Source: Vulcanimicrobiota bacterium
GTDB lineage: Bacteria > Vulcanimicrobiota > Vulcanimicrobiia > Eremiobacterales > Eremiobacteraceae
Length of the DNA: 64,000 nt
Direction: 5' to 3'
Assembly: GCA_963812135.1 (NCBI GenBank)
Contig: CAWETU010000001.1
Span: forward strand, 1,536,001 to 1,600,000
This document shows, one piece after another, positions 37,740-59,909 of this stretch. Below the pieces are notes generated by a model. The model had not been told where the DNA came from and did not search any database. It worked only from the letters and a program-made list of their open reading frames with translations. A program made the translations under genes and the position numbers. Position 1 is the first letter of the stretch; each line of letters begins with the position of its first letter.

Positions 37740-39320
37740 CTACGGTGTTGCTGTAAGTGCATTCGCAGCGTTGAGCCGCCCTGCGCCCTGCTGGTCAGGC
37801 GAGCTCGCGCAGCCGCAAATGTTGTCCGCGGTGCTCTCGAGGATTGAAGCGACCTGGGCCGGCGCGATGCCTGGGTCTTTGCTGATCATCAGCGCGGCGA
37901 CGCCGGCCACATGTGGCGCCGCCATCGAGGTCCCGTTGATGAGCACCCCGTGGTTGCCGACGTTCGGCGGGCTGCTGTTGGCGCAGCAGGCCGTGGTGGA
38001 ATAGTTGTTGACGATCCACTGGAGGAAATCGCAAAGCGGGACCACCCCGCAGCTCAGCTGCGCAGCGCTCGGATCTCCACCCGGAGCGACCAGACCCCAC
38101 GTGGTGTTGCCGTTGTAATTCGAGTAGTTCGGCACGTACTCGGTCGGAGTGGCGGGGTTGGTGATGTCGTCGACTGCGCTGGCGCCGACGACGATGACGC
38201 CGTTGCAGTTCGCCGGATCTTTGAGCGTGTTGGCGCCGTCGTTGCCCGAGGCGACGACCACGACGATTTTGTTGTTGACCGCGTCGTTGATCGCCGCTTG
38301 CTCGCCAGGATCGCACGGGCCTACGCTCGTCGCTCCCAAGCTCAGGTTGATGACATTGGCATGGGCTCCGACTGCCCAGTCGATGGCGGCCGCGACATCT
38401 GCTGAGGTCGCGCCCGGGGGATTCGGGTTCGCGGCCGTCGGCTGCTTGAACACGCGCACCTCGAGCAGATTGACGTTGAAGCCGGCGCCGGCATAACGCG
38501 TTGAGTTGTTCGTCACAGACGCTGCGATACCGCTGACGTTGCTGCCGTGCCCGTCATCGTCTTGAGCTGACGTGCTGAAATCCTGCGTGCCGCTGCCGTT
38601 GTCGAACACCGCGCTATTGACGACCTTCGAGCAGATGTCGATGTTGTTCGCGTCGTAGCCACTGTCGATGATCGCGATACGTACGCCGGGATTGCCTTGC
38701 GTCATATCCCATGCCCCCGGCATTTGCGTGAGCCACATATCCCATTGGACTTGGCTCGCATGTGGCGGCGTCGTGTATGGACCGGTGTACGGCGGTGCCG
38801 GGCCAAATTCTTGATCATTGGGAACAAACTCGAGATATCGGGCGCCGAGCGGCTTCGCTTCGACGATGCCAGGCGTTCCAGCGACCGAAGCGGCGACCGC
38901 AGCCGGATCCCTGTCGGGCGGGATGGTGTATGTGACATAGCCAAAGCGATTTGCCGCGCCTGCCTGCTGTGCTTGCACTCGTTCAAGAGCGCGCACGGCC
39001 CGCGGAGCCGCTGCTGTGGTTGAAAACTTGACCGTTATCAAACCTGGAACGTAGGCGGGTCGCGCCCGACGGATGAGCGGTCGCACGTGAAGCGCTTCGA
39101 GCCCCATCGCTTCTACCGAGGTAGCGTTCGCATTGCAACCGATCAGCGGGGGCGTTGGAGTCACGCAACCATTGCAGGGGCAAAGTCCATTGCAACCACC
39201 TCGAGGACCTGGACCTGCGGCACATGCGGTTATGAAAAGCGCCAATGCTCCCGCAAAGCAAGCGCTCACGAGATTCTTGGATCTCGCGCCCCGAACGGCC
39301 ACGGTGGTCGTCGCTTTCAT
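37740..39320 (-). CDS. S8 subtilisin-like serine protease, lipoprotein
   Basis: IIDSG, GHGSNVSG, GTSMAAPHV triad; lipobox ITAC; ATG 39320. Confidence 0.9.
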   Translation of the reverse strand: MKATTTVAVRGARSKNLVSACFAGALALFITACAAGPGPRGGCNGLCPCNGCVTPTPPLIGCNANATSVEAMGLEALHVRPLIRRARPAYVPGLITVKFSTTAAAPRAVRALERVQAQQAGAANRFGYVTYTIPPDRDPAAVAASVAGTPGIVEAKPLGARYLEFVPNDQEFGPAPPYTGPYTTPPHASQVQWDMWLTQMPGAWDMTQGNPGVRIAIIDSGYDANNIDICSKVVNSAVFDNGSGTQDFSTSAQDDDGHGSNVSGIAASVTNNSTRYAGAGFNVNLLEVRVFKQPTAANPNPPGATSADVAAAIDWAVGAHANVINLSLGATSVGPCDPGEQAAINDAVNNKIVVVVASGNDGANTLKDPANCNGVIVVGASAVDDITNPATPTEYVPNYSNYNGNTTWGLVAPGGDPSAAQLSCGVVPLCDFLQWIVNNYSTTACCANSSPPNVGNHGVLINGTSMAAPHVAGVAALMISKDPGIAPAQVASILESTADNICGCASSPDQQGAGRLNAANALTATP

Positions 39321-39327
39321 AGCGCGT

Positions 39328-39849
39328 TCACCGGCACCTTTTCGCTCGAAGGCGGCGTTTTCGAGCGTCGGCGAGCTCGGGCGGCCAGACCACTTCAAAG
39401 CGTTCGAACACTAATTCGGTCTCGGGTCCAACCAAGAAACCCTCCCGCACGCCGCGCCTGCGGAAATATCGCGTGTGTGCGTTGATCCACCATGCAAGCG
39501 TGCGATCGCCGCCGCCGGCATCCCAGGCGAATTGTTCGTCCGCGTCGCGCATCGGCTTGACCTCCACCTGCACGCAGCGCACCACGCAGCGGGCCGTGCC
39601 GCTGCCATCCATCACGATGTGCAGATCGCCGCGTTTAGGAAGCGCCCGGCCTTGCGCAGTTAAGTCTCTCGGCAGACTCGCGTGTGCGCGCTTGGTTCCG
39701 GCGAGGACCTGCGTTGCGAGCTCGTCCGTCAGTTCGTCGCTGTCGCCAAAGCGCACGACCGACGGAACCCTCTTCTTCACGTCCGCACTCTCCGCGTATG
39801 CGCGCCAGAGCTGACGCGCCTGAGATCTGGTTTTTGCATCGTCGCGCAC
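39328..39849 (-). CDS. ASCH domain protein
   Basis: FGDSDELTDELATQVLAGTKRA, LVFERFEVVW. Confidence 0.85.
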   Translation of the reverse strand: MRDDAKTRSQARQLWRAYAESADVKKRVPSVVRFGDSDELTDELATQVLAGTKRAHASLPRDLTAQGRALPKRGDLHIVMDGSGTARCVVRCVQVEVKPMRDADEQFAWDAGGGDRTLAWWINAHTRYFRRRGVREGFLVGPETELVFERFEVVWPPELADARKRRLRAKRCR

Positions 39850-40050: not shown

Positions 40051-40530
40051 TCACTGGCGTCCGTTGCCCCCTTGCGGCAGCTTGGCGGTCGGGGAGTCGA
40101 ACATGATATCCACATAGTATGACTGCTTGAACGAGCTGCAGTTGTGGACTTCCGGCGCGTACTTCGACCCGCGAGCAGCAGCAAGCGCCTGCTGATCAAG
40201 AGCGGCGTTGCCGGATGATTTGTTGAGGTGCACTTGGAGCGGGTTGCCGACTGAGTCCAGTTCGATCAGCACCTGCGTGTCCGCGTGACTCAACGCAGCC
40301 GACTCCATCTTAAGCCACTCGGTCGGAAAATGCGTGATCTGAGCCTTCGAGTCCGGGATTCCGCAGCTCCCGGAGTTTGCCGTATCAACGGCGTTGCTTG
40401 TCGTCGCCGGAACCAGTGCGCTATAGGTTACGTGCGTGTCTGCCGCCGCCGGCTCTTGGGCTGCGACCCCGATGAGTACCGCGAGAAGGATACCGATGAA
40501 GCTGGGCAGTTTGTGCGTCCGCGCGTACAT
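40051..40530 (-). CDS. Exported TonB C-terminal domain protein (paralog 1)
   Basis: Signal peptide; VLIELDSVGN..KSSGNAALDQQALAAA..KYAPE. Confidence 0.8.
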   Translation of the reverse strand: MYARTHKLPSFIGILLAVLIGVAAQEPAAADTHVTYSALVPATTSNAVDTANSGSCGIPDSKAQITHFPTEWLKMESAALSHADTQVLIELDSVGNPLQVHLNKSSGNAALDQQALAAARGSKYAPEVHNCSSFKQSYYVDIMFDSPTAKLPQGGNGRQ

Positions 40531-40550
40531 GTTGGTAACCTCCCGAGTGG

Positions 40551-40625
40551 ATGGTGCCGAAGCGACGATTCATCGGTCCGGAGAGGCCGCTAGGCTCGCG
40601 TGAGTTGCGCGTGGCATCGACCTCT
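40551..40625 (-). ncRNA. Candidate structured 5' leader RNA, copy 1
   Basis: Blocks AGAGGTCGATGCC and CGTCGCTTCGGCACCAT shared with 46324-46397, with pairing-preserving changes. Confidence 0.6.
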
Positions 40626-40631
40626 GCTCAT

Positions 40632-40687
40632 AACATAGCAGCCCCCCGGTGTGCGCGGTATCCGCAGCGCCTCCGCAGAACTACGTA
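40632..40687 (-). promoter_or_regulatory. Triple direct-repeat operator plus -10 (TonB1 promoter)
   Basis: Sense TACGTA-gttc-TGCGGA-ggcgc-TGCGGA, 23 nt, TATGTT preceded by TG. Confidence 0.6.
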
Positions 40688-40711
40688 CGCTGATTTGCAG
40701 AGACGGCAATC

Positions 40712-41798
40712 CTAAAGCTCGACGATCGTATCGTTCGCTTCATTCGTGAACCATGGGGTACCATCTGGCCCTATCGTCATTCCCCTGAGCACGCCGACTG
40801 GGAAAGACCACAGGTCGGTTACCGTGCCGGAGAGATCCATCTTCCCGACCTGGGCGTTCCACGGTGCCGCGAGCTGGTTGTGCAAGAACCACAGAGTCCC
40901 ATCGGGCGCCGAGTCGATCCGCATAAGCGTTTCGTTTGCCGGATTCATGGGTTCGGGGAATTCGGTGAAGACGCCGGTGGGGGGTGACTCGAGCGATTTT
41001 ATGGTTGAACCGCTCTGTGAACCAGATATTTCCATCTTTGCCAACCGTCATGCCGCCAATGGCGCTCGGAGCACCAGGAGGTCCGTTACACGAAGGGGTG
41101 GGCACCGTGTACTCTGTGATTGCGCCCGACATTGTAACTTTAGCGATATTGTTGACGCAGTTCGACGGCTCGCCGGCTTCAGCAAACCACATATTCCCGT
41201 CTGGACCCTTGACGATATGAACCACGCCGCTGTTCGCTGTCGGGATCGTGTAAGCGCCAACTAGCGTCCCGGTTGTCGATATCGCGCCGACGACGTTAGC
41301 GCCATAGTGCGTGAACCACATATTGCCGTCAGGGCCCGCCGCAATCCCGTAAAGGTTCTGCGGTGCGCCAGCCAGCGGTGGGGGAAGCGCAAACTCAGTG
41401 ATGACGCCTTCGGTCGTTATCCGGCCAATCGTGTTGAAATTGAACTCGGTGAACCATAGGTTGCCGTCAGGTCCTGGGGCGATTTGCGCTGGATACGCGC
41501 CAGCTGCAGGTACCAAGAACTCCGTTATCGTGCCGCTCGCCGTCACGCGAGCGATCTTGTTCGCATCGCTCTCCACGACCCAAATGTTGCCGTCCGGACC
41601 TGAGGTGATGCCGTCGATGTACGCGTTGTATCCAAAGGGCACCTCACCTGGAAGCGTATAGATCGCCAGCGGTGCGATCGTCGGGCACGGACATTCCAGC
41701 AGTGTGTGCAGCTGATGCTCATTGAGCACGCTCTTGGAACTGCACGCCGCCAAAAGCGACGCCGTGACAGCAACGCTGAGCAGCCAGTGAGTGCGCAT
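40712..41798 (-). CDS. Vgb-like beta-propeller lipoprotein 1, frameshifted in a G run near 40980
   Basis: Lipobox LAAC; repeated GPDGNxWF blades. Confidence 0.8.
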
Positions 41799-41827: not shown

Positions 41828-42905
41828 TCAAAGCCGTATGACGAGCGCATTGGCCTCATCCGTAAACCACGGGCTCCCGTCGGGCCCGACAGTGATAGCC
41901 CGCGGCTCGCCGCTCGGGAAGGCCCAAAGATTGGTCTCGGTTCCGGTCAAGTCGAACTTCGCGATCTGGCTGTTCCACGGAGGCGCGATCTCGGCTTGGC
42001 ACACCCACAGCGATCCGTCAGGAGTCGCGACCATACGCCGCAGCTTTTCCACCGCAGGGTTAGCAACTGCCGGATACTCTGTGATTGCACCTGACGTCGT
42101 GATGCGCCCGAGCTGCCCGACACTTATTTCGGGGAACCATAGCGCACCGTCGGCACCGACGACCAGGTTCTTCGGAGCCGCGCTGGCTGTCGGCAGCGGG
42201 AACTCGGTGATGACTCCAGATGTCGTGATCCTGCCAATTTTGTTACCTGTTTCTTCGCTGAACCACAGGTTGTTATCTGGACCGGTTATAATGAAGGTCG
42301 CTTGGCCAAGATAACCTATGATTGGGTTTGCAGTCGGGATATTGTACGTGGCTGAGTAGGCTGCCGGATGTTGACATCACACCGACAACATTTGCACCGC
42401 CGTGCAGGAACCATATGTTGCCGTCCGGGCCTGCGGTGATCCCCTGAAGGTTCGGCGGTGCGGCGGAGAGCGGCGCAGGCAGTGGAAAGTCGGTTATGAC
42501 ACCAGCGGTTGTGATGCGCCGAATGATTGGCATATTGTAGTCGGTGAACCAGAGGTTGTTATCGGGTCCGACCGCGATGATCGCAGGGCCGGCGCCAGCA
42601 TCCGGGATCGGGTATTCGGTAACCGCACCACCCACAGTCACCTTCGCGATCTTGCCGGCGTCGTATTCGGTTACCCAAAGGTTCCCATCCGGACCGGTGA
42701 CGATGCCGCCGATGTATTCGTTGCCGGTTGAATTGAAGGGCACCTCGCTCGGCAGCGTATACTCCGCAAGCGGTGCGAGTGTCGGGCACGGACATTGCAG
42801 CAGCGTGTGCAGCTGATGCTCGTTGAGCACGCTCTTGGAACTGCAGGCCGCCACAAGCGACGCCGCGACGAGAACTGCTGCTATCAGCGGCGGTTTATGC
42901 AGCAT
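41828..42905 (-). CDS. Vgb-like beta-propeller lipoprotein 2, frameshifted near 42353
   Basis: Lipobox VAAC; GPDGNLW/GPDNNLW blades continue in a second frame to stop at 41828. Confidence 0.8.
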
Positions 42906-43121: not shown

Positions 43122-45641
43122 CTACGCGCTTAGCGCTTCCTGAACCGCCCGATGTTCGGGCCATGCGGCCCCCTGCTTGCCGAGCTCAGCGACTTCGGCC
43201 TCGCCAAGCTGTTCTCGGAGGGCTGCCCCGAGCCGCTCATAACCCCATGCCTCGGTCATTTCGCGCTGTAGACCGAGCTCGTCGAACTGCTTGTCGACGT
43301 ATCCGACGAGCCTAGCACCGGCGCGTCCGTTGCCGCGCAACGCCGCAAGCAATGCGAGGTGCTGTAAGGCGACTGCAATGTTCCAGGAATTCTGGTCAGC
43401 TTGGGACCACCGAAGCGCCTCTTGGGCCGACTCGCGAGCTTCTTCGAGCTCGCCAAGAGCGATCCGATACGCGGTGCTGTTGTTGAGGTCAATGGCCAGA
43501 TCGGTTTTCTCCTTGCCACGCGCGCGGATCACGAGCGACTCGTTCACAAGCTTGAGCGCCTCGTCGGGATGCCTGTCTGCAAATTCGAGTTCCGCGAAGT
43601 TGCCGAGGATGCTTGCCGTCGTAGCCTCGTCGCCGAGTGCGCGGAACGCGGCGAGCGCTTGAGAATAAAGCTGTCTGCCGTCAGCGAAATTCTGTTGACT
43701 GTATGCGTTCAGAGCTTGGAAGTTCAGACATAACGCAACGCCGACATCATCGCCGAGTTGTCGCAACGCGACGATTGCACGACCGATCACCTCGTTTGCT
43801 TCGTCAAGCCGGCCCATTTGAAGCAGGCTCGATGCCATCGTCCGTAGCGAATGCGCGACACCACGCGCGTCGCCAATCTTCTCGTACAGCCCTAACGCTT
43901 TTTGCACGCAATCATACATAGGTTGTCCCTGCACGAAGCGTGCCCTCGCTCGCCAGAGACGCGCTGCTACGGCGGGCTGTTCTTCTTCAGCAACACGCCC
44001 CAATGCGAGATCAAGCCAGCGCTGAGCTTCGCCAGAAAGGCCTGCGAGGATCCACATCCGCTCCAAATGGCCCGCGATGATACCGCCGAGGACGTCATCG
44101 TGATCTCTTGTCAGTGCCCAGTCAAGAGCCGAGCGATAATTCTCAAGATCCTGCTCGACGTCGGCGAGCCAGACCTTCGTCGAACCGACGCCGAAGCGGT
44201 CGTCTGCGGATCGCGCCAGCTGCGCATAATACTCCACGTGGCGGCGCGTAAAGGTCTCACGCCGATCCCCTTTGTTGAGCTTATCGAGCGCATACGCTCG
44301 AGTCGACTCAAGCAACCGATAACGCTCTTCCGTCTCCGCAGCCTGGGCGACGACGAGCGACTTATCAACGAGGCTGATGAGCAAGTCGGCGATATCCGAT
44401 TGGCTCAACTCGCCACCTGTGCAGATCGCCTCGGCTGCTTGCGTGCTAAACGCACCGGCAAAAACCCCCAACCGCTCGAAGAGCCGTTGCTCGCGCGGCG
44501 AGAGCAGGTCGAAGCTCCAATCGATCAGTGCGCTCAGGGTCTTGTGGCGAGGTAACGCGGTGCGGCTGCCGCCCGTTAGAACGCGGAACCGATCATCCAA
44601 GCTCTGCGCCAGCCTTTGAACGCTGACAACATTGACGCGTGTTGCAGCGAGCTCGATCGCGAGCGGGATACCGTCGACGCGGTGGCAGATGTCCGCAACG
44701 ACAGGCGCATTTTCATGCGTCAGCGTGAACCGCGTATCAGCCGCTAGTGCGCGATCGACGAACAGCGCGATCGCGCCGTAGCGCATCGCTCGGTCGGCTC
44801 GCAGGCCGGCAGTCTCTGCCGGCAGCCCGAGCGAACTCACGCGGTGCACGACCTCACCCATGATGCCCAACGCTTGACGAGACGTTGCCAAGATGCGCAC
44901 TTCGGAGCAGTTGTGCAGAATCTCATCGGCGAGCTCCGCTGCGGTTTCGAGCACATGCTCACAGTTGTCGAAGATGAGCAGAGCGTGCCGTCGCTTGAGC
45001 CAACTGATAATCGCTTCGCTCATGGGGCGTCCCGGCTGCTCGTGGACTCCCATCGAATGCGCCACGACGCTGGGGACGAGCCGCCCGTCGCTGATCGGCG
45101 AGAAGTCGCAAAACCAAACGCCGTCCGGATAGAGGCCGATCAAGTCTAGGCCGACGCGCAATGCAAGACGGGTCTTACCGACGCCACCGGATCCTGAGAA
45201 GGTGAGCAGACGTGTGCTCTCGAGCAAGATCTTCACGTCGATTAGATCTTGCTCGCGACCCACCAATGCCGTCAGCTGATACGGCAAGTTGTTCGGCCGT
45301 GATTCAAGGGGACCCGCTGGGACCGCGGGAGCCGCCGACCCGAGCAAACCGACACGCCCTGCTTCGACGACCGCACGCGTACGCGAGGATACGTCAAGTT
45401 TGCCGAGCACGTGATTGATGTGCGTCTCGACGGTTCGCCGGCCAAGGCCGAGACGCTGTGCTATTTCCTTATTGCTGAGTCCAAAGGCGATGAGCTCGAG
45501 GATCTCTTGCTCGCGACGTGTCAGCACGACTCCCTCGCCTTGAGGCGCGCGCACGGATAGGTCATCGCCCAAACGAGAATCTGCGGCGGCAGTCAGAGAC
45601 CGTGCCACACCGTCATCCCCCGTCGTCTTCGCGTTTCGCAT
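43122..45641 (-). CDS. LuxR-HTH - ATPase (NB-ARC-like) - TPR transcriptional regulator
   Basis: LTRREQEIL..GLSNKEIA..TVETH HTH at N-terminus, GSGGVGKT, FDNCEH, DGIPLAIELAA, TPRs; ATG 45641. Confidence 0.9.
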   Translation of the reverse strand: MRNAKTTGDDGVARSLTAAADSRLGDDLSVRAPQGEGVVLTRREQEILELIAFGLSNKEIAQRLGLGRRTVETHINHVLGKLDVSSRTRAVVEAGRVGLLGSAAPAVPAGPLESRPNNLPYQLTALVGREQDLIDVKILLESTRLLTFSGSGGVGKTRLALRVGLDLIGLYPDGVWFCDFSPISDGRLVPSVVAHSMGVHEQPGRPMSEAIISWLKRRHALLIFDNCEHVLETAAELADEILHNCSEVRILATSRQALGIMGEVVHRVSSLGLPAETAGLRADRAMRYGAIALFVDRALAADTRFTLTHENAPVVADICHRVDGIPLAIELAATRVNVVSVQRLAQSLDDRFRVLTGGSRTALPRHKTLSALIDWSFDLLSPREQRLFERLGVFAGAFSTQAAEAICTGGELSQSDIADLLISLVDKSLVVAQAAETEERYRLLESTRAYALDKLNKGDRRETFTRRHVEYYAQLARSADDRFGVGSTKVWLADVEQDLENYRSALDWALTRDHDDVLGGIIAGHLERMWILAGLSGEAQRWLDLALGRVAEEEQPAVAARLWRARARFVQGQPMYDCVQKALGLYEKIGDARGVAHSLRTMASSLLQMGRLDEANEVIGRAIVALRQLGDDVGVALCLNFQALNAYSQQNFADGRQLYSQALAAFRALGDEATTASILGNFAELEFADRHPDEALKLVNESLVIRARGKEKTDLAIDLNNSTAYRIALGELEEARESAQEALRWSQADQNSWNIAVALQHLALLAALRGNGRAGARLVGYVDKQFDELGLQREMTEAWGYERLGAALREQLGEAEVAELGKQGAAWPEHRAVQEALSA

Positions 45642-45742
45642 CGGACTCAAAAGCCCCGCCCCATGAGAGCTCGGGTGCTTGGCCCGTTGGATATAGCAGC
45701 GAAAAGACCCTTGAGGGCTCAAGACTCGCCACGAAACGCCGT

Positions 45743-45767
45743 ACCGCCGGTCGATGAAACCGGCGGT
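45743..45767. terminator. Hairpin downstream of TonB gene 2
   Basis: ACCGCCGGT-CGATGAA-ACCGGCGGT. Confidence 0.45.
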
Positions 45768-45807
45768 TGGCGCGGTATCCGCTTTGGTTTGCGCCGCAAG
45801 AGAAGCG

Positions 45808-46305
45808 CTACCGTACGGGTCTGCGTAAGCCACCGTTGAGCGACTCTGGCAAAGCCGCGTTAGCGGTTGCGAACGTGATGGTGAAGTAGTAGGATCGCTT
45901 GAACGAATTGCAGTTACGCACTTCGGGTGCATACTTGGAACCTTTGGCTGCGGTCAACGCCTGCTCGTCGAGGAACACGTTTCCGGACGACTTCGCGATC
46001 CGTGACGCGAGCACGTTGCCGACTGAATCCAGGTCGACCATGACTTGCGTCGTGGAGCCGCCTGTCTGGGCGGCGATCAGGTTGAGCCACTGCGCCGGGT
46101 ACGGACTCGTGATGGCTGCGTTGGAGTCAGGATCCGGGCATGAACCAAGGTTCGGGATCGTGACGTCGGCGGCCATAGCCACCGGCGAGAGGTTGCTGTA
46201 GATCACGCGGGTATCAGCGTTCGCTTGGAATTGGACAGTGAAGCCGATCAGCGCCGCTGCCAGAACACCGAGCACCGCCGGGGCGATCCGTGCGCGGTTA
46301 TACAT
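45808..46305 (-). CDS. Exported TonB C-terminal domain protein (paralog 2)
   Basis: RBS AGGAG; VMVDLDSVGN..KSSGNVFLDEQALTAAKGSKYAPEVRNC; clear paralog of 40051..40530. Confidence 0.8.
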   Translation of the reverse strand: MYNRARIAPAVLGVLAAALIGFTVQFQANADTRVIYSNLSPVAMAADVTIPNLGSCPDPDSNAAITSPYPAQWLNLIAAQTGGSTTQVMVDLDSVGNVLASRIAKSSGNVFLDEQALTAAKGSKYAPEVRNCNSFKRSYYFTITFATANAALPESLNGGLRRPVR

Positions 46306-46323
46306 GATAGTCTCCTTAGAGCC

Positions 46324-46397
46324 ATGGTGCCGAAGCGACGGCTTTCATCGTTTCGGAGAGATCGTCAAGCGGCTGGTTTAGGGCGGCATCGACCTCT
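46324..46397 (-). ncRNA. Candidate structured 5' leader RNA, copy 2
   Basis: Same conserved blocks and helices as copy 1. Confidence 0.6.
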
Positions 46398-46403
46398 GGC
46401 TCT

Positions 46404-46471
46404 ACGGTATCAGGTCGCTGGGTCTAGCCGCGTCCGCATAACTACTGGGTGCGCATCCAGAAAATTACGTA
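46404..46471 (-). promoter_or_regulatory. Direct-repeat operator(s) plus -10 (TonB2 promoter)
   Basis: Sense TACGTA-attt-TCTGGA ... CCAGTA-gtta-TGCGGA, 23 nt, TACCGT preceded by TG. Confidence 0.55.
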
Positions 46472-46627
46472 GACGCACCTAGGCCCGTGCGAAGATGGCG
46501 AGTGCGCTCTAACACTCGCTGGCGGTGGGCGCTCCTACGGGCAGTGGCAGGAGCATGAGCTGGCAGACGTCGACGACCTCGGGACCGGTGCCGCGAGTGC
46601 CGGCCAATAGAAGCACGCGAGCAACAA

Positions 46628-46657
46628 AACGCCGCGGCCAGTGACGTGCGCGGCGTT
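46628..46657 (-). terminator. Rho-independent terminator after clpX
   Basis: AACGCCGCG...CGCGGCGTT followed by TTGTT on the minus strand. Confidence 0.6.
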
Positions 46658-46684
46658 GCATGACATTTGAACGCGTCGAGAGGG

Positions 46685-47947
<1,263 letters not shown>

Positions 47948-47958
47948 CCACTGCCTTT

Positions 47959-47982
47959 CCCGAGCTTCGCTCGGGCGCTACA
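47959..47982. repeat. GTAG-type REP-like hairpin between clpP and clpX
   Basis: CCCGAGC-TTC-GCTCGGG-CGCTACA; 21 of 24 nt match 20463-20486. Confidence 0.65.
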
Positions 47983-47997
47983 GGCCCGGGCATTGTC

Positions 47998-48621
47998 TCA
48001 CGCCGCTGATGGTTTCGGCGCGCTCGCCGCTCGGGTTTCCTTATTCATCACCGAGTCGACGATCCCGTAGGCGACGGCTTCCTCGGCCGTCATGATGTAA
48101 TCCCGCTCCAAATCCCGTTCGATTCGTTCCAGGGATTGTCCCGTTGTCTCCACATAGATATCGGCCAAAACGCGACGGCTCTTAATGAGGTCGCGCGCGT
48201 GGATCTCTAGGTCGGTCGCCTGTCCGCCCATCTGTGATACCCATGGCTGGTGGATGATGACCTTGGAATACGGAAGGCAGAAACGGTTGCCTTTCGCACC
48301 GCCGGTCAGCAGGATGGATGCCGCGCTGGCGGCCATGCCCGCGCAAAACGTCGCGACCGCCGGCTTGATGAGACGCATCGTATCGTAGATCGCCAGCCCT
48401 GCGGTGAGGCTGCCGCCCGGCGAGTTGATGTACATCTCGATGTCTTTGTCCGCGTCTTCGCGCTCCAAGAACAGCAGCTGCGCGATGACGAGGTTGGCCA
48501 TGTTGTCGTCGATGCCGCCCGTCACGAAGATGATGCGGTCTTTGAGCAGGCGAGAAAAGATGTCGAAGGCGCGTTCGCCGCGCGACGTCTGCTCGACCAC
48601 CATCGGCACTAAGTGTCCCAT
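47998..48621 (-). CDS. clpP: Clp protease proteolytic subunit
   Basis: YINSPGG, GMAASAA, IHQP. Confidence 0.97.
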
Positions 48622-50010: not shown

Positions 50011-50085
50011 TGGAGCGGAAGACGAGATTCGAACTCGCGACCCTCGCCTTGGCAAGGCGATGCTCTACCGCTGAGCTACTTCCGC
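50011..50085 (-). tRNA. tRNA-Gly(GCC)
   Basis: Cloverleaf, anticodon loop TT-GCC-AA, encoded CCA. Confidence 0.95.
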
Positions 50086-50185
50086 GTGCGAAGGGCGGTT
50101 ACTTAAGCGCGCCGCCTGTTTTCCCTTGCAGGAGACGGCGCGCGCACCGCATGGATTTGCGACTTCGCGCGAGAAATGCAGTCGC

Positions 50186-50320
50186 ATGCTGCACGATTCA
50201 GGTCTCGTCGTCATCTGTCTCGTGGCCGGTGGGGCGATATACCTTGCGATCTTCTTCTGGGTCACGGTGCGGCGCGTCCGCGAGCTCGGGCCGCCGACCC
50301 CACCGCCGGAACATCACTAG
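50186..50320 (+). CDS. Small single-pass membrane protein (44 aa)
   Basis: ATG 50186, one TM helix, Pro-rich tail, hairpin right after the stop. Confidence 0.5.
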   Translation: MLHDSGLVVICLVAGGAIYLAIFFWVTVRRVRELGPPTPPPEHH

Positions 50321-50321
50321 G

Positions 50322-50351
50322 AAAAGGCGGACCCCTTTAGGAGGTCCGCCT
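50322..50351 (-). terminator. Terminator after acs (possibly bidirectional)
   Basis: AGGCGGACC...GGTCCGCCT stem with T tract on the minus strand. Confidence 0.65.
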
Positions 50352-50382
50352 CACGCGTGGCCCCGCCGTGTGAAGGCCTGCG

Positions 50383-52360
<1,978 letters not shown>

Positions 52361-52668
52361 GGGAGCCTCCATTGGCTGATCGAAGCCGGCATCTGAGCCG
52401 GCTCGCATGGGTGCGCGCAGATAGGACATGCCGCGCGTCGCGGGGGACAGGTGAGTTAGCTGCCGTCAGGGGGTATCCTCTCGCGGCGCCCGTTACGTCG
52501 AACGGGGGCCGCCGCGTCGAGGCTTTGGGCGCGCGTTTCGAGGTCAAGAGGTGGCGGCCACGACGAGGCTCAACTGCTTGGGCGACAAGCGGCGGCGCGT
52601 CGTTCCTGCGACACGCGGCGTTTGCCGTTTTTGGATTTCTTACGTGGCGTTCGACTGGAGGTTGATTG

Positions 52669-53211
52669 ATGGCTAGCACCACCACTGAGCCGCAAGTAGC
52701 CAATCCCGCTCCATTGGGGCTTGCCGGGTTCGCGCTCACGACGCTCTTATTGTCGGCATCAAATGCAGGGCTGCTCAAAGGCTCCGATGTCTGGCTCGCC
52801 TACGCGCTCTTCTACGGAGGTATCGCTCAATTCGCTGCCGGGATGTGGGAGTTCAAGGCCAAGAACACATTTGGCGCGACGGCGTTCTCGACGTATGGAG
52901 CGTTCTGGTTAGGCACGGCGTTTTACGTCTGGTTCTGGGCAGGGAAATCGACCGACCTGCACGCTGACCTCGCCTGGATGCTCCTCGGCTTTGCGATCTT
53001 CACCGGGTACATGATGCTCAACTCGTTCAACCTGAAAAACCCGCCGGTGATGTGGGTCTTCGTGGCCCTGTTCATCACGTTTGTGTTGCTCTGCGCCGGC
53101 GAGTTCACGGGCATGGCGACACTGCACACGCTGGGAGGTTACGTCGGTATTCTCACAGCGCTGCTCGCATGGTACGCATCGTATAAAGGCGTGGCGAACA
53201 GTTTGGCCTGA
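52669..53211 (+). CDS. satP: Acetate uptake transporter, SatP/GPR1/FUN34 family
   Basis: ANPAPLGLAGF, NTFGATAFSTYGAFW; divergent from acs. Confidence 0.9.
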   Translation: MASTTTEPQVANPAPLGLAGFALTTLLLSASNAGLLKGSDVWLAYALFYGGIAQFAAGMWEFKAKNTFGATAFSTYGAFWLGTAFYVWFWAGKSTDLHADLAWMLLGFAIFTGYMMLNSFNLKNPPVMWVFVALFITFVLLCAGEFTGMATLHTLGGYVGILTALLAWYASYKGVANSLA

Positions 53212-53230
53212 GCTCGGATCGTAAACGTTG

Positions 53231-53262
53231 CGGCGACGGTGGTTACCGTCGCCGTTTTTTTT
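53231..53262 (+). terminator. Rho-independent terminator after satP
   Basis: CGGCGACGGT-GGTT-ACCGTCGCCG plus T8. Confidence 0.85.
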
Positions 53263-53263
53263 A

Positions 53264-53345
53264 TGGGCAAGACAGGACTCGAACCTGCACGGGTCGCCCC
53301 ACCGGAACCTAAATCCGGCGCGTATACCAGTTCCGCCACTTGCCC
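53264..53345 (-). tRNA. tRNA-Leu(TAG)
   Basis: Cloverleaf with long variable arm, loop TT-TAG-GT; CCA not encoded. Confidence 0.93.
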
Positions 53346-53446
53346 ACTACGCGATCGCGCGTTTCGGCGCGAGCGGCCGCCTTTCTTGTGAGCGGCCGCC
53401 CGCGTCATGACGCGAGACTGAAGGCGGAGGTATCAGGCCCTTTGCG

Positions 53447-54409
53447 CTACGGCGATCCGACGGCGACGCCGCCCGCGCTGATACCCGCCGGAAAACCGGA
53501 CAGCGTCAGCACGAAGCTCGGCGCGAGGGTCGCGCTGAACGCGCTGGTCGCGAGCGGGAAGAAACTGAGCGTGTTGTGCTGCAGGTCCGTGACGAAGAGA
53601 TTACCTCTGTTGTCAAACGCGAGATCTTGCGCGCTGGTGATCGTTGTCGCCGTGTCCGAGATGCTCACGGCGCCGCCGCCGGCAGTCGGCGCGTTGAAGC
53701 GCCGAATGCTGCCGTCGTTGAAGTTGGTGACGTACAGATTGCCGACAGCATCGAACGCGAGCTGTGTGGGATTATTGAGGCCCGTCAGCGGGCTGGCGGT
53801 GGGCGATTGGCCCGTCGTAAACGGCGGGTTGAAAATCGAAACGGTGTTGTTGTTCGCGCCACCGCTAGAGGTCACATACAGGTTGCCCGCGGCATCGAAT
53901 GCGATCCCGTCCGGCGCAGTCACGCTGCTGATTGTCACCGCTGGGGTTGGCGTTATGGAGCCTGAGAACGGCGGTGTGAATTCAAGGACCTTGCCGGTGC
54001 CGTTGTCCGCCACCCACATGTTACCTGAATGGTCGAAAGCGAGGCCGTTGGGGAACGACGAGCCGGTGATGGTGATGGTGGCGAACGGCGTGCTCGCGCT
54101 GGTGATCGGCGGGGCATAGCCAGTCACTTGACCCGTCGTCGACACGTCGTTGAGCGACCACAGATTACCGGCTGCATCAAAGCGCAGGGCCACCGAAGAT
54201 TGGAGTCCGGTCGGCGTAAGAATCGCAGCGACGGAGCTGGCGCTGGCAGGCGACATCACTTTGCCGATCACGCCCGGCGAGTTGAAACTCGATACATAAA
54301 CGGCTTGCGGTGGCGGCGTCGGCGTTGGGCTGCTCGAGCTTGAAGAACAGCCGTACGAAACGGAGGCGATGAGCGCAAGTGCGGCGAGTATCCTAGAAGA
54401 GCCCCTCAT
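53447..54409 (-). CDS. NHL-like beta-propeller lipoprotein
   Basis: Lipobox SYGC, repeated AFDxxGNL(W/Y)V blades; ATG 54409. Confidence 0.8.
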   Translation of the reverse strand: MRGSSRILAALALIASVSYGCSSSSSSPTPTPPPQAVYVSSFNSPGVIGKVMSPASASSVAAILTPTGLQSSVALRFDAAGNLWSLNDVSTTGQVTGYAPPITSASTPFATITITGSSFPNGLAFDHSGNMWVADNGTGKVLEFTPPFSGSITPTPAVTISSVTAPDGIAFDAAGNLYVTSSGGANNNTVSIFNPPFTTGQSPTASPLTGLNNPTQLAFDAVGNLYVTNFNDGSIRRFNAPTAGGGAVSISDTATTITSAQDLAFDNRGNLFVTDLQHNTLSFFPLATSAFSATLAPSFVLTLSGFPAGISAGGVAVGSP

Positions 54410-54485
54410 GGCGTATTGTTCCTTTCGTGTGACGGGTTGAGGGCGGATCACTAGTTTCTTTATCGGCAAGACTCGCCAAGCACCG

Positions 54486-55877
54486 CTAAATGAGGCGCTC
54501 GTGCCGCTTGCGTTTCCAGACCAGCGTGTAGTACGTGTACTGCAGCAGCACGGCGGTGGTGAAGGCGGCAGGATAGCCCCACCAGATCCCGTCGATCCCG
54601 ATGCGATGCGAGAGCACGTAGGCGACCGGGACTTCCACGCCCCAGATGGCGGCGATGCCGATGACGGTCGGCCAAAAGACGGTGCCGCTGGCGCGCATGA
54701 TGCCCGACAAGATGGCGGAGTTGCCGAACAGCAAGTAGCTCCACAAGGTGATCGAGAGCAGGCGGACCGCGATCTCGAGCGTGCCGGGGTCGGTCAGGAA
54801 CCAGCCGGCGATGTCGCGCTTGAAGATGTAACAAAGCGAGATGAGCACGCCGCCTACGACGTAGTTGAGGAGAACGCCGGATCGGACGACTTTGCGCAGC
54901 AGGTCTTCTCGGTTCGCGCCGATGGCTTGGGCGCCGAAGATCGAGGCGGTGATGCCGATGCTCACGGCGGGGAATTGCACGTAGCTCGCGATCTGGTTCA
55001 CTGCGCCGTACGCGGCGGTGGCGTGCGAGCCGAAGCGGTTGACGAACGAGATGACGGCTAGCTCGGAGAGCGAGACCATGATGAGCTGGATGCCGGTCGG
55101 CACGCCGATGCGGATGATCTGTTTGAGGATCGGCCAGTCGAGTTTGAGATCCTGGACCGTCTCCGAGTCGAGCGCCAGCGGGTGGTGGATGACGCGCAGG
55201 TAGACGAGCATCGCGATGAGCGAGACCGCGTTCGCGAGGAGCGCGCCGGCGGAGGCGCTGACGACGCCGAGGTGCGGCAGACCGAACCAGCCGAGGATGA
55301 AGGCCGGGACGGTAAGGACGCTGAGCAGCGTCGCGAGCAGTAGGAAGACGAACGGCGTCGTGCTGTCGGCGGTACCGCGCATGAACGACAGATACGTGAA
55401 GAACACGAAGAGCATAGGCAGCGCGAAAAACCAGAGACGCGCGTAGGCGACGGAGTCGGCGAGGATGTTCGCCGGTGTGCCGAGCAGCAGCAGGGCTTCT
55501 TTCGTGAAGAGCGCGCCCAGGACGCCGGCCAGGCAGCCGAGCACGAATGTGAAGGTGACGCTCGTGCCGACGACTTTCTTGAGTTTGTGATCGTCGCGCG
55601 CGCCGTAGGCTTGGCCGACGAGGACGGTGCTGCCGCTTGAGAGTCCGATCAAGAACGAGACGAGCAGGAAGAGGACGGGGAAGAACGCCGAGATCGCGGC
55701 GAGTCCGTTGACGCCGATGAGGCGGCCGATGAAGACGCTGCTGATCGTGCCGGACGCCGATTGCAAGATGTTGCTGAGCACAAGCGGCACGAGAAAAAAG
55801 CCCATGACTTGCCATAATGGGCGTGATTCGTCGAAGATGCCGCGCGCGGGCGCGGCCGCTTTGGGGGGCTGCTCCAT
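54486..55877 (-). CDS. MATE family efflux transporter
   Basis: Multi-TM; VGQAYGA, QAIGA, GIWWGYP. Confidence 0.9.
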   Translation of the reverse strand: MEQPPKAAAPARGIFDESRPLWQVMGFFLVPLVLSNILQSASGTISSVFIGRLIGVNGLAAISAFFPVLFLLVSFLIGLSSGSTVLVGQAYGARDDHKLKKVVGTSVTFTFVLGCLAGVLGALFTKEALLLLGTPANILADSVAYARLWFFALPMLFVFFTYLSFMRGTADSTTPFVFLLLATLLSVLTVPAFILGWFGLPHLGVVSASAGALLANAVSLIAMLVYLRVIHHPLALDSETVQDLKLDWPILKQIIRIGVPTGIQLIMVSLSELAVISFVNRFGSHATAAYGAVNQIASYVQFPAVSIGITASIFGAQAIGANREDLLRKVVRSGVLLNYVVGGVLISLCYIFKRDIAGWFLTDPGTLEIAVRLLSITLWSYLLFGNSAILSGIMRASGTVFWPTVIGIAAIWGVEVPVAYVLSHRIGIDGIWWGYPAAFTTAVLLQYTYYTLVWKRKRHERLI

Positions 55878-55886
55878 TTTGTGTGG

Positions 55887-56354
55887 TTAGTCCGCGGGGC
55901 TGGGGCGCTGGATACGCAGGTGATTGCGGATCGTGCCTTCGGGCAGCGCCATCCGCGCGAGCAGGTCGGCGGTGTGCCACTCGACGTCGCTCTCGACCGC
56001 GCCTTGTAAGAGGATGATGTCGGCGACCGCGTCGACCGAGATGGCGCGCTTGCGCAGCAGCGGGTCGCGGCCGATCGCGCGGCGGATGCGCGTGATCGGC
56101 GAGCCGGAGGCGGCGACCGCGTCGCCGACGCGATCGATGACGTATTGCGTGAGGTCGGCGATCTTCGTGGCGGTGATACCGACAGCGAGGCCGATGCGCT
56201 CGCGATCGTTCGTGAGCACGTGCGTGAGACGATGTAAGCCGTGTCGCAGCCTTCGAACGAATTCGTTGCGGTTCTCGGCCGGGGCGAAGGCGACGCCCGT
56301 TGCGACGCCGAGGATGGCGGCTGCGGCGATCCCGCCGCCAAAACGATCGTTCAC
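55887..56354 (-). CDS. YtxH-like N-terminus plus BON-like domain protein
   Basis: ILGVATGVAFAP; ISVDAVADIILLQGAV..IRNHLRI. Confidence 0.6.
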   Translation of the reverse strand: MNDRFGGGIAAAAILGVATGVAFAPAENRNEFVRRLRHGLHRLTHVLTNDRERIGLAVGITATKIADLTQYVIDRVGDAVAASGSPITRIRRAIGRDPLLRKRAISVDAVADIILLQGAVESDVEWHTADLLARMALPEGTIRNHLRIQRPSPAD

Positions 56355-56401
56355 GTGGGGGTCCTATGGTCCCGCGAAATCGGTCGCGGGGACGAATGAT
56401 G

Positions 56402-56474
56402 TGCGTCGTGAGGGACTTGAACCCACAACCAACAGATTAAGAGTCTGCTGCTCTACCAGTTGAGCTAACGACGC
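56402..56474 (-). tRNA. tRNA-Lys(CTT)
   Basis: Cloverleaf, loop CT-CTT-AA. Confidence 0.93.
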
Positions 56475-56591
56475 GCGGGTGCGCTCTCGTAGTTCTTACC
56501 CGCTTACGGCGATTTCCTGTCGTCGCGAGGGGCGACTGGTGCGACGAAGAACTGGCTTCGCGATACGTCGGTGGCACGAGAGGAGTATCGC

Positions 56592-58724
56592 ATGCGACGT
56601 CTTTTCCTTCTTTTGAGCTTCTTGGTCGCCGTCGCTATTCCGGCGGCAGCCGCTGCGCTGAAGCCGCCGCCGACGGCGATCGTGAACGTGAGCACGACGT
56701 ATTGGGGCGTTGCGGTGGACGATCCGTATCGCTGGCTCGAAAACGCGTCGTCGCCCAAAGTCGGCGCGTGGATCGATGCGCAGAATTCGTATGCGGCTGA
56801 GGTGTTCGCTACGTTCAAGCACGCGGATGCGATCGGGCAGCGCTTGCGTGAGCTGGCGATAACCGGACCGCAATGGGCGAGCCCGAAGATCGCGGCCAGT
56901 ACGCTCTTCTATCTTCGCGAGACGCCGCCGGCGGCACAGCCGGTGCTCGTCGGCGCGCCGTGGCCGTCGGGAGCCGCGCGGGTGTTGGTCGACCCAAATC
57001 CGGCGGGCGGTTTGCTTTCGATCGAGGGTTACTGGCCGTCGCCGGACGGCAGATACGTCGCATATGCGACACAGGAGGCTGGAGCAGAGGTCACCTCGAT
57101 GCACGTTGTACGGGTGGCTGATGCCGTGATTCTTCCGGATACGCTGCCGGACGTCAGCAGCGGGGCGTCGACGGATGCGTTGGCGTGGGACGCGGATAGC
57201 CGAGGCTTTGTCGATACGCGCATGCCGCGGTCCGCGGGCGCTTCGAATGCGTCCTATTTCGACTCGAGTTTGTATCATCACCGTGTTGGTGATTCGTCAG
57301 CGGCGGATCAGCAGGCGTTGGGTCGCGGCTTCTCGCCGGTCGCTGAGTGGAACGCGATGGAATCCGCAGACGGGCGCGCTGTTGCGATGGTGCATTATGG
57401 TGACGGTTCGTACAGCGATATGTACGAGCGCGTCGGCACCGGTCCGTGGCGTAAAGTCGTTGACGCGTCGACCGGTCTGCTGGTCGGTGAGGACGAGACG
57501 AGCGTGACGACAGCGGCGTTCGTCGGTCCGGCATTGCTTGCGATCGAGACGACGAATGCGCCGCGAGGTGAGATCGTGGCAGTTTCAGGCAGCGCAGGTG
57601 CGCCTGATCATGTTCTGGTTGTTGAGCCGGCCGGTGGATGGGCGATTCGGGCGATCAGCGCGTTGCGCGGCGGGTTCCTGACGACGGAAGTAAATGGAGC
57701 CGATTGGCGCGTGCGCCAGTTCGATGGCGGCGGTAGGTTCGTGCGGACGGTCGCGCTGCCGGCGCGCGGCATCGGGATCGACGGCATCGCGGCTGACGAG
57801 AGCAGCGACCAGGCGGTCATCCAGTATTCCGGGTGGGTGATTCCGGATCACTGGGCGCGCTATGACACCAAGAGCGGTGTGTTGACGACGATCTATGCGC
57901 TCAAGCCGCCGGCGGATTATTCGGACGTGGAGTTCACCACGATGGACGCCATCTCAAAGGATGGCACGCGCGTGCCGATGACGGTGATCCATCGGCGCGG
58001 GATGCCGGCGAACGCGAGCGCCCCGGGGATTTTGACGGCGTATGGCGGCTATGGGCTCACGCAGAGCCCCTTCTTCATCGGTACGGCGCTGTTCTGGATC
58101 GAGCACGGCGGTGTGTACGCTCAGGCGTACATCCGCGGTGGCGGCGAGCACGGCGAGACGTGGCATCTCGATGGACGCCTCACGAAGAAACAAAACGATT
58201 ACGACGATTTCGCGGCGTGTTCGCAGGCTCTCGTGTCTTCAGGTTGGGTGGCTCCGGGTAGGTTGGGAATCGTTGGCGGGAGCAACGGCGGGTTGTTGAT
58301 GGGCGCGGCGCTGACGCAGCATCCGGCTCTGTATCGCGCGGTGGTGAGTTTTGCGGGCGATTACGACATGTTGCGCGTTGAGGACTCGCCGAACGGGCGA
58401 TACAACGTGACCGAGTTCGGCACCGTCAAAGACGAGGCGCAGTTCAAGGCGCTGTACGCGTACTCGCCGTACGACAACGTGCGTGCTGCGACGCCGTATC
58501 CGGCGGTCTTGATGATCGCGGGCGAGAACGATCCGCGCGTGGAGCCGTGGCAGTCGCGCAAGATGATCGCGCGTCTCCAGGCGGCGAACGGCGGAGCGCA
58601 ACCGATCATGCTGATCACGCGCAGACAAGCAGGGCACGGAATCGGCGCGTCGTTTAGCCAGCGGTTGGGAGACCGCTCCGCGGAGTACGTGTTCTTCGCG
58701 AACGAGCTCGGCTTGCGGTTCTAG
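56592..58724 (+). CDS. Secreted prolyl oligopeptidase (S9A)
   Basis: DPYRWLE, GGSNGG, ENDPRV, AGHG; RBS GAGGAG. Confidence 0.92.
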   Translation: MRRLFLLLSFLVAVAIPAAAAALKPPPTAIVNVSTTYWGVAVDDPYRWLENASSPKVGAWIDAQNSYAAEVFATFKHADAIGQRLRELAITGPQWASPKIAASTLFYLRETPPAAQPVLVGAPWPSGAARVLVDPNPAGGLLSIEGYWPSPDGRYVAYATQEAGAEVTSMHVVRVADAVILPDTLPDVSSGASTDALAWDADSRGFVDTRMPRSAGASNASYFDSSLYHHRVGDSSAADQQALGRGFSPVAEWNAMESADGRAVAMVHYGDGSYSDMYERVGTGPWRKVVDASTGLLVGEDETSVTTAAFVGPALLAIETTNAPRGEIVAVSGSAGAPDHVLVVEPAGGWAIRAISALRGGFLTTEVNGADWRVRQFDGGGRFVRTVALPARGIGIDGIAADESSDQAVIQYSGWVIPDHWARYDTKSGVLTTIYALKPPADYSDVEFTTMDAISKDGTRVPMTVIHRRGMPANASAPGILTAYGGYGLTQSPFFIGTALFWIEHGGVYAQAYIRGGGEHGETWHLDGRLTKKQNDYDDFAACSQALVSSGWVAPGRLGIVGGSNGGLLMGAALTQHPALYRAVVSFAGDYDMLRVEDSPNGRYNVTEFGTVKDEAQFKALYAYSPYDNVRAATPYPAVLMIAGENDPRVEPWQSRKMIARLQAANGGAQPIMLITRRQAGHGIGASFSQRLGDRSAEYVFFANELGLRF

Positions 58725-58736
58725 GCGGAAATGAAG

Positions 58737-58809
58737 TGCCCCGCGACGGACTTGAACCGTCAACCCTCGCCTTAAAAGGGCGATGCTCTACCGATTGAGC
58801 TAGCGGAGC
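58737..58809 (-). tRNA. tRNA-Lys(TTT)
   Basis: Cloverleaf, loop CT-TTT-AA. Confidence 0.92.
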
Positions 58810-58849
58810 CTGTTACGCGCCGACTCGTGCCGGAGCGCGTCGGCTTTTT

Positions 58850-58923
58850 CGCGCCTGGAGGGGCTCGAACCCCCAACCGCCAGATTCGAAGTCTGGAACT
58901 CTATCCAATTGAGCTACAGGCGC
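58850..58923 (-). tRNA. tRNA-Arg(TCG)
   Basis: Cloverleaf, loop CT-TCG-AA. Confidence 0.92.
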
Positions 58924-58930
58924 ATCGATG

Positions 58931-59005
58931 GGTGAATGACGGGGGTCGAACCCGCGACCTTCGGCGCCACAGGCCGACGCTCTAACCAACTGAGCTACAT
59001 TCACC
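58931..59005 (-). tRNA. tRNA-His(GTG)
   Basis: G-1:C73, loop CT-GTG-GC. Confidence 0.93.
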
Positions 59006-59117
59006 ATGCGAGGGGCGACGCCGCCTTTTCTCGTTTTGCCAGGCGCGTGCCTCTTGTTTGAGGGGAGCAACGTCGTGGCGTCGAACCACACTGCCCCATC
59101 GAATAGGCGGCAGTGAT

Positions 59118-59885: not shown

Positions 59886-59909
59886 CCCTACGTTACAAAC
59901 CGACCTATG

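Follow-up and report, generated by a model that had tools for sequence, protein, structure and literature searches.

A predicted structured 5' leader of secreted TonB_C genes in one genus of Eremiobacterota

Background

Bacterial mRNAs of the ompA type carry a stabilising stem-loop at the very 5' end of their 5' UTR. Other leaders, such as the expression platforms of translational riboswitches and RNA thermometers, control translation by switching between the Shine-Dalgarno sequence, an anti-Shine-Dalgarno strand, and an anti-anti-Shine-Dalgarno strand. And in the transposase mRNAs of IS10 and IS50, transcripts that read through from outside are inhibited by folding back on themselves.

The leader that we describe here precedes genes for a secreted protein with a free TonB_C domain. 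It has a hairpin at its predicted 5' end (P1), usually a second hairpin (P2), and sometimes a potential helix (P0) that would reach upstream of the transcription start (+1). As in the ompA-type stabilisers, a hairpin is formed from the first transcribed nucleotides, there is no single-stranded 5' end, and the mRNAs encode envelope proteins. Unlike in those stabilisers, the base of P1 is invariant (GAGG/CCUC) and a second conserved hairpin is stacked on it; also, stabilisation is a prediction here. As in the Shine-Dalgarno switches, there are three mutually exclusive strands (the 5' GAGG, an internal CCUCC, and the true GGAGG) that re-pair in silico, but our leader has no identified sensor domain or trigger, and its Shine-Dalgarno sequence is open in the default fold. 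As in IS10 and IS50, sequence upstream of the mRNA's own +1 is complementary to the ribosome-binding region, and the occluding helix (here, P0) could form only in transcripts that come from outside. However, our leader is no mobile element, only about half of the leaders have P0, and the read-through is putative. Lastly, c-di-GMP-I (GEMM-I) and other tandem-hairpin riboswitches and cobalamin riboswitches resemble the leader in their location in the 5' UTR, in having two adjacent hairpins, or in their TonB-related context, but the leader lacks their conserved loops and receptor motifs, and none of 11 leaders obtained a score from any Rfam family at E ≤ 10. Cobalamin riboswitches precede genes for TonB-dependent uptake, whereas here the gene product is a free TonB_C domain and not a receptor.

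The leader adds an uncatalogued RNA motif with covariation support from a phylum with almost no cultured members. RNA regulators are not known to have been described from it, and a full-text literature search turned up no paper on riboswitches in Eremiobacterota. A search for RNA motifs or riboswitch candidates in connection with TonB gave nothing beyond an unrelated review about metals.

Two leaders with shared helices

The window (the 64-kb stretch of DNA that we analysed) contains two TonB_C genes whose leaders share conserved blocks:

40051-40530, minus strand: gene 1 (159 aa; signal peptide and a single TonB_C domain)
40531-40625, minus strand: leader copy 1, from the predicted +1 to the start codon of gene 1
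40582-40625, minus strand: hairpin P1 of copy 1; its base AGAGGUCG (40625-40618) pairs with CGGCCUCU (from minimum free energy or MFE folds, family counts, and RNAalifold)
40557-40581, minus strand: hairpin P2 of copy 1; CCGGA-C-CGAUG, loop AAU, CGUCG-C-UUCGG (from MFE folds and pair changes in the family)
40551-40556, minus strand: 3' tail CACCAU after P2 of copy 1, inside an exact 17-mer that is common to copy 2
40539-40544, minus strand: Shine-Dalgarno sequence GGGAGG of copy 1, 8 nt before the ATG at 40530-40528 (from the sequence)
45808-46305, minus strand: gene 2 (165 aa; signal peptide and a single TonB_C domain)
46306-46397, minus strand: leader copy 2, from the predicted +1 to the start codon of gene 2
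46357-46397, minus strand: hairpin P1 of copy 2; AGAGGUCG pairs with CGAUCUCU around a variable interior (from MFE folds, family counts, and RNAalifold)
46330-46356, minus strand: hairpin P2 of copy 2; CCGAA-A-CGAUG, loop AAAGC, CGUCG-C-UUCGG (from MFE folds and family counts)
46317-46312, minus strand: Shine-Dalgarno sequence AAGGAG of copy 2; the 3' strand of P0 runs into it

Both proteins match TonB_C (Pfam PF03544, E about 1e-7; NCBIfam's tonB_Cterm is also assigned), and they are 51% identical to each other. The leaders are paralogs that lie 5.8 kb apart. The initial annotation had singled out conserved blocks in front of both genes, and these are indeed exact and confined to those two places in the window. 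The 17-mer CGTCGCTTCGGCACCAT occurs twice (40551-40567 and 46324-46340), and allowing up to three mismatches gives the same two matches, as compared to 0.71 matches expected by chance. The 13-mer AGAGGTCGATGCC is found exactly at 40613-40625 and 46385-46397 only.

Single-sequence folds reproduced the two helices of the initial annotation, with their loops of AAU and AAAGC. In copy 1, P1 starts with the predicted +1 and has a variable interior hairpin. The two hairpins abut in both copies, in copy 1 with no linker at all. As had been claimed, the differences between the copies keep the pairing: there are two in P1 (G-C to G-U and U-G to U-A) and one in P2 (G-U to A-U). The close identity of the copies extends even to the bulges and the CACCAU tail, which is more than pairing needs and hints at a trans-acting partner. 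The single-sequence folds are not unusually stable (z = -0.80 in copy 1, -2.02 in copy 2).

Known RNA families

The leaders had been said not to fit the cobalamin, SAM-I, lysine, glycine, or c-di-GMP consensus, and this held up. In Rfam 15, the only matches in the whole window at the gathering score are eight tRNAs. At E ≤ 10 there was no match on copy 1, and copy 2 had only a chance match to mascRNA (12.8 bits) that is on the other strand and outside of the leader. Nine homologous leaders had no match at E ≤ 10 either, and the gathering scores for the cobalamin, SAM, lysine, glycine, and c-di-GMP-I/II families were not reached by the leaders.

Homologous leaders in a single genus

A protein search identified a third close paralog in the same genome (on contig C5; 40% identical), with a diverged copy of the leader upstream. 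Family-wide protein searches found close homologs in all six of the other genomes from this genus. We obtained 11 further leaders from same-genus genomes and metagenome contigs, for 14 distinct leaders in all, and the leader always precedes the same family of paralogs (about 150 amino acids, with a signal peptide and TonB_C). The scan of metagenomes gave 55 loci, of which about six were close relatives, and these contributed three distinct new leaders (L064, L066, and L036). L062 and L063 are identical to G006_C33, L067 is identical to G003_C145, and L065 (54% identical over its best tblastn segment, with an unclear N-terminus) has no match at E ≤ 1 to the leader model R2 (described below). 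A scan of a collection of genome contigs gave just three loci. L036 lies on a contig that is titled as a Trinickia metagenome-assembled genome (DASZGN010000357.1), and it has a 97%-identical C5 paralog with both leader and promoter. This contig is likely to be mis-binned and to come from the same genus as the window's organism.

A model of the two window copies (R1) was too narrow. Outside of their own genome it found two true leaders, and on whole loci the scores of its true and false matches overlapped. Another 18 matches of R1 in relatives (E ≤ 0.1) lie in apparent coding sequence and lack the conserved blocks, so we rejected them as false. Model R2 was made from eight leaders that were cut as short loci. 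In the organism's own 2.8-Mb genome, R2 matches exactly three sites, which are the leaders of the three paralogs, and it gave 46.4 bits to a held-out leader from a metagenome (L064). R2 matched in 5 of 151 genomes and 1 of 50 genera in a sample of the class, and in 3 of 151 genomes and 1 of 71 genera in a sample of the phylum; these searches scored part of the first-look candidates from each genome, so elsewhere the leader is "not found in those searched." Among the genera that were searched, we found the leader in only one, which consists of uncultured soil bacteria.

Not every relative of these genes has the leader. It is absent from a tandem paralog in the same genome (G000:C1:1963202-1963954, minus strand, loci L028/L029; 270 amino acids with two TonB_C domains), upstream of which we noticed a direct repeat of the type ATGTAGCGGYCGA. 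Homologs in another genus of the same family, g2, have a shorter and different leader without AGAGG/CCUC. We found no believable R2 match at the g2 loci; the sole match above 13 bits (L049:1734-1837, 18.7 bits) is downstream of the gene's start. The g2 homologs (L046-L049 and L071) do keep the operator and a CTACTCT, and their leader is short with a single hairpin. In these g2 leaders, a UUGGC upstream of +1 is complementary to a GCCAA just after the Shine-Dalgarno sequence, so the fold-back complementarity may be older than P1 and P2.

Conserved pairing on the mRNA strand

We tested the structure in an alignment of 12 leaders (A10) that was fitted to R2 and so is biased towards the structure. 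In A10, 96.1% of the 203 cells for pairs of P1 and P2 hold standard pairs, as compared to 30.6-43.3% after shifting the 3' partners by 1-3 columns. In 500 shuffles, neither the observed pairing nor the observed covariation score for P1 and P2 was equalled; these counts overstate the significance because the 12 leaders are kin and the alignment follows the model's structure. RNAalifold predicted the same two helices from A10.

The two helices are maintained in different ways. In P2, 5 of the 10 pairs change on both sides (A-U/U-A; U-G/G-C/U-A; G-C/C-G/U-A; G-C/A-U; and A-U/G-C), so the covariation that the initial annotation had proposed for this helix extends to the homologs. In the base of P1, none of the eight pairs has a two-sided change: three (GAG/CUC) are constant and five vary on one side. 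Support for pairing at the base of P1 comes from these five one-sided changes and from the turnover of the interior stem. P1 is in all 14 single-sequence folds, with interior stems of unrelated sequence and length. P2 is in 12 of the 14; G002_C61 and G003_C145 have P1 only, and both of these retain AGAGG...CCUC at the same position. GAGG/CCUC and CCG/CGG are invariant in all 12 aligned leaders, and the only nucleotides that are conserved and unpaired are the CAC after P2. The GGCAC is retained in most leaders of the family.

The 12 leaders have 23 G-U cells as against 2 A-C cells, and pairing of the opposite strand would drop from 96% to 86%. As the initial annotation had argued from the two copies, the fold therefore belongs to the mRNA strand.

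A pseudoknot between UGCC and GGCA, which had also been proposed, found no support across the family: 67.4% of the cells are paired, 452 of 500 shuffles were at least as good, and the complementarity is present only in copy 1, copy 2, and G002_C62. We also found no sign of an intrinsic terminator or attenuator. There are no terminator-like sites within 40400-40850 or 46200-46750, and P2 is followed by CACCAU rather than by a U tract.

The predicted fold is on the sense strand, lies between promoter and start codon, and accompanies one gene family, which is what would be expected of a structured cis-regulatory 5' leader. From these comparisons we believe that it is a genuine and uncatalogued one, with predicted helices and a promoter context that are well supported.

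A predicted phased promoter upstream of the leader

Upstream of the two window leaders we identified these promoter-like and operator-like sequences:

40632-40637, minus strand: -10-like hexamer TATGTT of copy 1, with TGC before it (extended -10), 6 nt before AGAGG
40680-40686, minus strand: operator-like heptamer ACGTAGT of copy 1 (part of ACGTAGTTCTGCGG), which ends 42 nt before the hexamer
46404-46409, minus strand: -10-like hexamer TACCGT of copy 2, with TGA before it, 6 nt before AGAGG
46447-46441, minus strand: operator-like heptamer CAGTAGT of copy 2, which ends 31 nt before the hexamer
46470-46464, minus strand: operator-like heptamer ACGTAAT of copy 2, 23 bp from the other heptamer (from the sequence)

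For the promoter (and for P0, below), we used a MAFFT alignment (A6), which was used for these only, as its rows of the copy 1 type are one column off from those of the C5 type in P1 and P2. All 14 leaders have a TAnnnT hexamer at a distance of exactly 6 nt from the RGAGG downstream; its T4, A5, and T9 are invariant in A6, while its three inner positions are free to vary. In copy 1, copy 2, and G006_C33, the hexamer has a TGn before it. The heptamer, C-N-G-T-A-S-T, is half of a palindrome such as CGGTACCG or CGTAGTTCTACG. The distance from its end to the hexamer is exactly 31 nt in 11 of 14 leaders and 42 nt, or one helical turn more, in two others; the L064 leader has no heptamer. A second heptamer is about 23 bp further upstream in 10 of the 14 (22 bp in G004_C69). 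Counting by hand, we found the 31-nt spacing in two g2 leaders as well. The heptamers look like the sites of a putative transcription factor for this TonB_C gene family.

Base-exact phasing over diverged sequence suggests a promoter that depends on this factor, and it makes a start at the A of AGAGG (40625 and 46397) well supported by comparison, although we infer this position from sequence. Our prediction agrees with the initial annotation, which had placed the beginning of the motif at +1.

Several other observations concern these regions. A simple scan for sigma-70 promoters found none at either leader, and we rejected its sole match, which overlaps the start codon of gene 2. The upstream regions of the window's tRNA genes yielded no usable promoter consensus. 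Operator-like palindromes (CGTAGTT..CTACG, CGGTACCG) are also present in the homologous loci L040-L054. In some loci of the C5 type (L044, around 1340-1375, and L043), the 31-nt spacer between operator and -10 box holds a GAGG...CCUC hairpin of its own, which echoes the base of P1; one instance is GAGGCCC-acatc-GGGCCTC in G001.

A possible fold-back helix, P0

About half of the leaders have a stretch of 8-10 nt, immediately before AGAGG, that is complementary to the 5' edge of the Shine-Dalgarno sequence. In copy 2, the strands of this potential helix (P0) are:

46397-46404, minus strand: 5' strand UAGAGCCA, between the -10 hexamer and +1
46317-46324, minus strand: 3' strand UGGCUCUA (from duplex energy, the long-form fold, and family counts)

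This duplex has an energy of -17.4 kcal/mol, and 0.2% of shuffles are as good. In copy 2, five leaders of the C5 type, and G001, the energies range from -14 to -19 kcal/mol, and no more than 1.4% of shuffles do as well; in G005, UCUUGAGCCA pairs with UGGCUCAAGG. P0 is weak or absent (no better than shuffles) in copy 1, G002_C62, G004_C69, and G002_C61. In the MAFFT alignment, which is not fitted to a structure, 77.5% of the cells of P0 pair, as compared to 25-54% when slid; no shuffle of 500 paired as highly, and two-sided changes, A-U/U-A among them, occur in 4 of 10 pairs. When the folded sequence begins 15 nt upstream (the long form), a three-way junction of P0, P1, and P2 results in 10 of 14 leaders, with the conserved CAC as a junction strand.

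The 5' strand of P0 lies before +1, so P0 cannot form in transcripts that start at AGAGG. The gene that precedes copy 2 is clpX; at the C5 locus it is one for an amidohydrolase. We note that clpP and clpX (46685-48621, minus strand) immediately precede copy 2 on its strand, across a gap of 379 nt, and that a simple scan found no terminator-like site between clpX and copy 2. The clp genes are a possible source of transcripts that would read through into copy 2, and P0 might serve to silence such transcripts by fold-back, which is more speculative.

A model for the leader

Our best explanation, to which we give a probability of roughly 45%, is that this is a lineage-specific cis-acting structured leader in which secreted TonB_C mRNAs begin with a 5'-terminal hairpin that mimics a Shine-Dalgarno sequence. 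Transcription would start at the A of AGAGG, from a promoter that has only a -10 box (TAnnnT, TGn-extended) and that probably depends on a factor bound to the phased palindromic sites upstream. The first nucleotides would fold at once into P1, which, judging by comparison, would stack directly on P2. At the base of P1, the GAGG resembles a Shine-Dalgarno sequence and would pair with the CCUC(U/C)CC, which resembles an anti-Shine-Dalgarno. As long as P1 is intact, the pyrimidine strand would be locked and the true GGAGG, 25-30 nt downstream, would be free; the fully paired 5' end would also shield the mRNA from decay that depends on the 5' end. If the 5' strand were lost, displaced, or bound, then CCUCC would re-pair with the true Shine-Dalgarno sequence and translation would stop. 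More speculatively, transcripts that read in from an upstream gene (clpX, in the case of copy 2) would be the only ones with both strands of P0, and these would be silenced.

When we kept the first 8 nt of the leaders from pairing in the folds, the CCUC strand paired with the GGAG(G) stretch around P2 in G006_C44 and G004_C69 (according to dot-brackets read by eye). The number of paired Shine-Dalgarno nucleotides rose in 7 of 11 leaders, was unchanged in 3, and fell in 1, but this cannot count as an independent test, since in silico every CCUC pairs with every GGAGG. Relative to the MFE, the alternative fold is less stable by 3-12 kcal/mol in 10 of the 11 leaders, so the re-pairing needs a trigger; the cost is zero in G000_C5, whose MFE fold leaves those 8 nt unpaired. 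Some leaders already have 1-5 of the 6 nt of the Shine-Dalgarno sequence paired in the MFE folds of the short form.

Mimicry of the Shine-Dalgarno sequence accounts for the invariant GAGG/CCUC, for the free interior of P1, and for the survival of leaders with P1 only. It leaves unaccounted the strong constraint on the sequence of P2 and of the tail in the group of copy 1 and copy 2, and this constraint may reflect a trans-acting partner.

Such a partner could be a protein or a small RNA that recognizes the coaxial junction of P1 and P2 by its sequence and thereby sets translation or decay. The invariant GAGG/CCUC, CCG/CGG, and GGCAC all lie at the helix junction while the distal parts vary, and copy 1 and copy 2 have identical bulges and tails despite only 51% identity of the proteins. 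However, we found no candidate (there is no conserved RNA-binding gene nearby, and the neighbours differ among the three loci of this genome), and leaders with P1 only exist; we consider it unlikely, if worth keeping in mind. A hairpin that passively stabilises the 5' end, with no switching and with a GAGG that is kept for transcription initiation and not for mimicry, would suit the start of P1 at the predicted +1 or 1 nt after it in all 14 leaders, and it would let both P1's interior and the occurrence of P2 vary, as they do. We think that this too is distinctly unlikely, as the invariant CCG/CGG base, the covarying stem of P2, the conserved tail, and P0 would be unaccounted for. If RNA had no function here, then the leaders would be DNA-level operators or a neutral residue of gene duplication; the window copies are paralogs at a distance of 5.8 kb and the z-scores of their folds are weak, as this would have it. 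But leader identity between copies 1 and 2 is 0.71, far above the 0.34 at third positions of identical four-fold codons, and between copy 2 and its G002 ortholog it is 0.87 as against 0.58 at four-fold sites, so the conservation goes well beyond a residue of the old duplication. The Shine-Dalgarno spacer and the first codons are not conserved between the copies, which argues against both a neutral residue and a gene-conversion tract. Given also the compensatory changes in P2 and the pairing on one strand (23 G-U to 2 A-C), we find the absence of an RNA function hardly credible.

The remaining alternative is a new small-molecule riboswitch, in which a ligand would stabilise P0 in the three-way junction with P1 and P2 and so hide the 5' half of the Shine-Dalgarno sequence. 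Its attractions are the long-form junction with its conserved CAC strand in 10 of 14 leaders, the pairing and covariation support for P0, the lack of any matching Rfam family, and the identity of copies 1 and 2 beyond the needs of pairing. Yet the 5' strand of P0 coincides with the -10 box and discriminator, whose position is base-exact in 14 of 14 leaders and phased with the upstream sites, and P0 is missing from four leaders, including copy 1. Riboswitches in general have a conserved unpaired or junction pocket that is shared across diverse lineages; here the conserved bases are in the bases of helices, with almost no conserved unpaired nucleotides, P2 is missing from 2 of 14 leaders, and the leader was found in a single genus (1 of the 50 genera sampled from the class and 1 of the 71 from the phylum). 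We rate a ligand-binding riboswitch as quite improbable, and it is our least favoured functional reading. A specific version, in which P0-P1-P2 forms the aptamer of a riboswitch class that is new and private to this genus of Eremiobacterota, a ligand-stabilised closing helix hides the Shine-Dalgarno sequence, and the apparent -10 box is within the RNA, seems very improbable. The helical location of the invariant bases (GAGG/CCUC and CCG/CGG), together with the two leaders that lack P2, favours the Shine-Dalgarno-mimic 5' hairpin over a riboswitch. Of the two possibilities in the initial annotation, "riboswitch or cis-RNA," the conserved structured cis-RNA thus stands; the riboswitch is not favoured, given the helical invariants, the turnover of the interior of P1, the loss of P2, and the one genus among those searched. 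The initial annotation's broader suggestion of a translational switch or a protein-binding RNA was of the right general class.

Significance and gene neighbourhood

There appear to be three layers of control on one family of free, secreted TonB_C proteins: phased operator sites, a promoter with only a -10 box, and a structured leader. With these three layers, expression appears to be tightly gated. A hairpin that mimics the Shine-Dalgarno sequence, along with possible silencing by fold-back, would be simple designs that can be tested. The leader's narrow distribution limits its wider importance.

We also note some features of the neighbourhood. Directly downstream of gene 2 is an ORF for a regulator with LuxR/GerE-type HTH, AAA, and TPR domains (43122-45932, minus strand), which is a candidate regulator of the locus. 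Since the longest version of this ORF overlaps the end of gene 2 by 125 nt, its true start probably lies further downstream. Downstream of gene 1 are an ASCH-domain gene and an S8 subtilase (37740-39849). The eight tRNA genes are within 50014-60981 of the window, on the minus strand, and four of them are clustered at 58737-59983. Upstream of copy 1 are two paralogous beta-propeller genes of the Vgb lyase family (40740-41798 and 42273-42905, minus strand).
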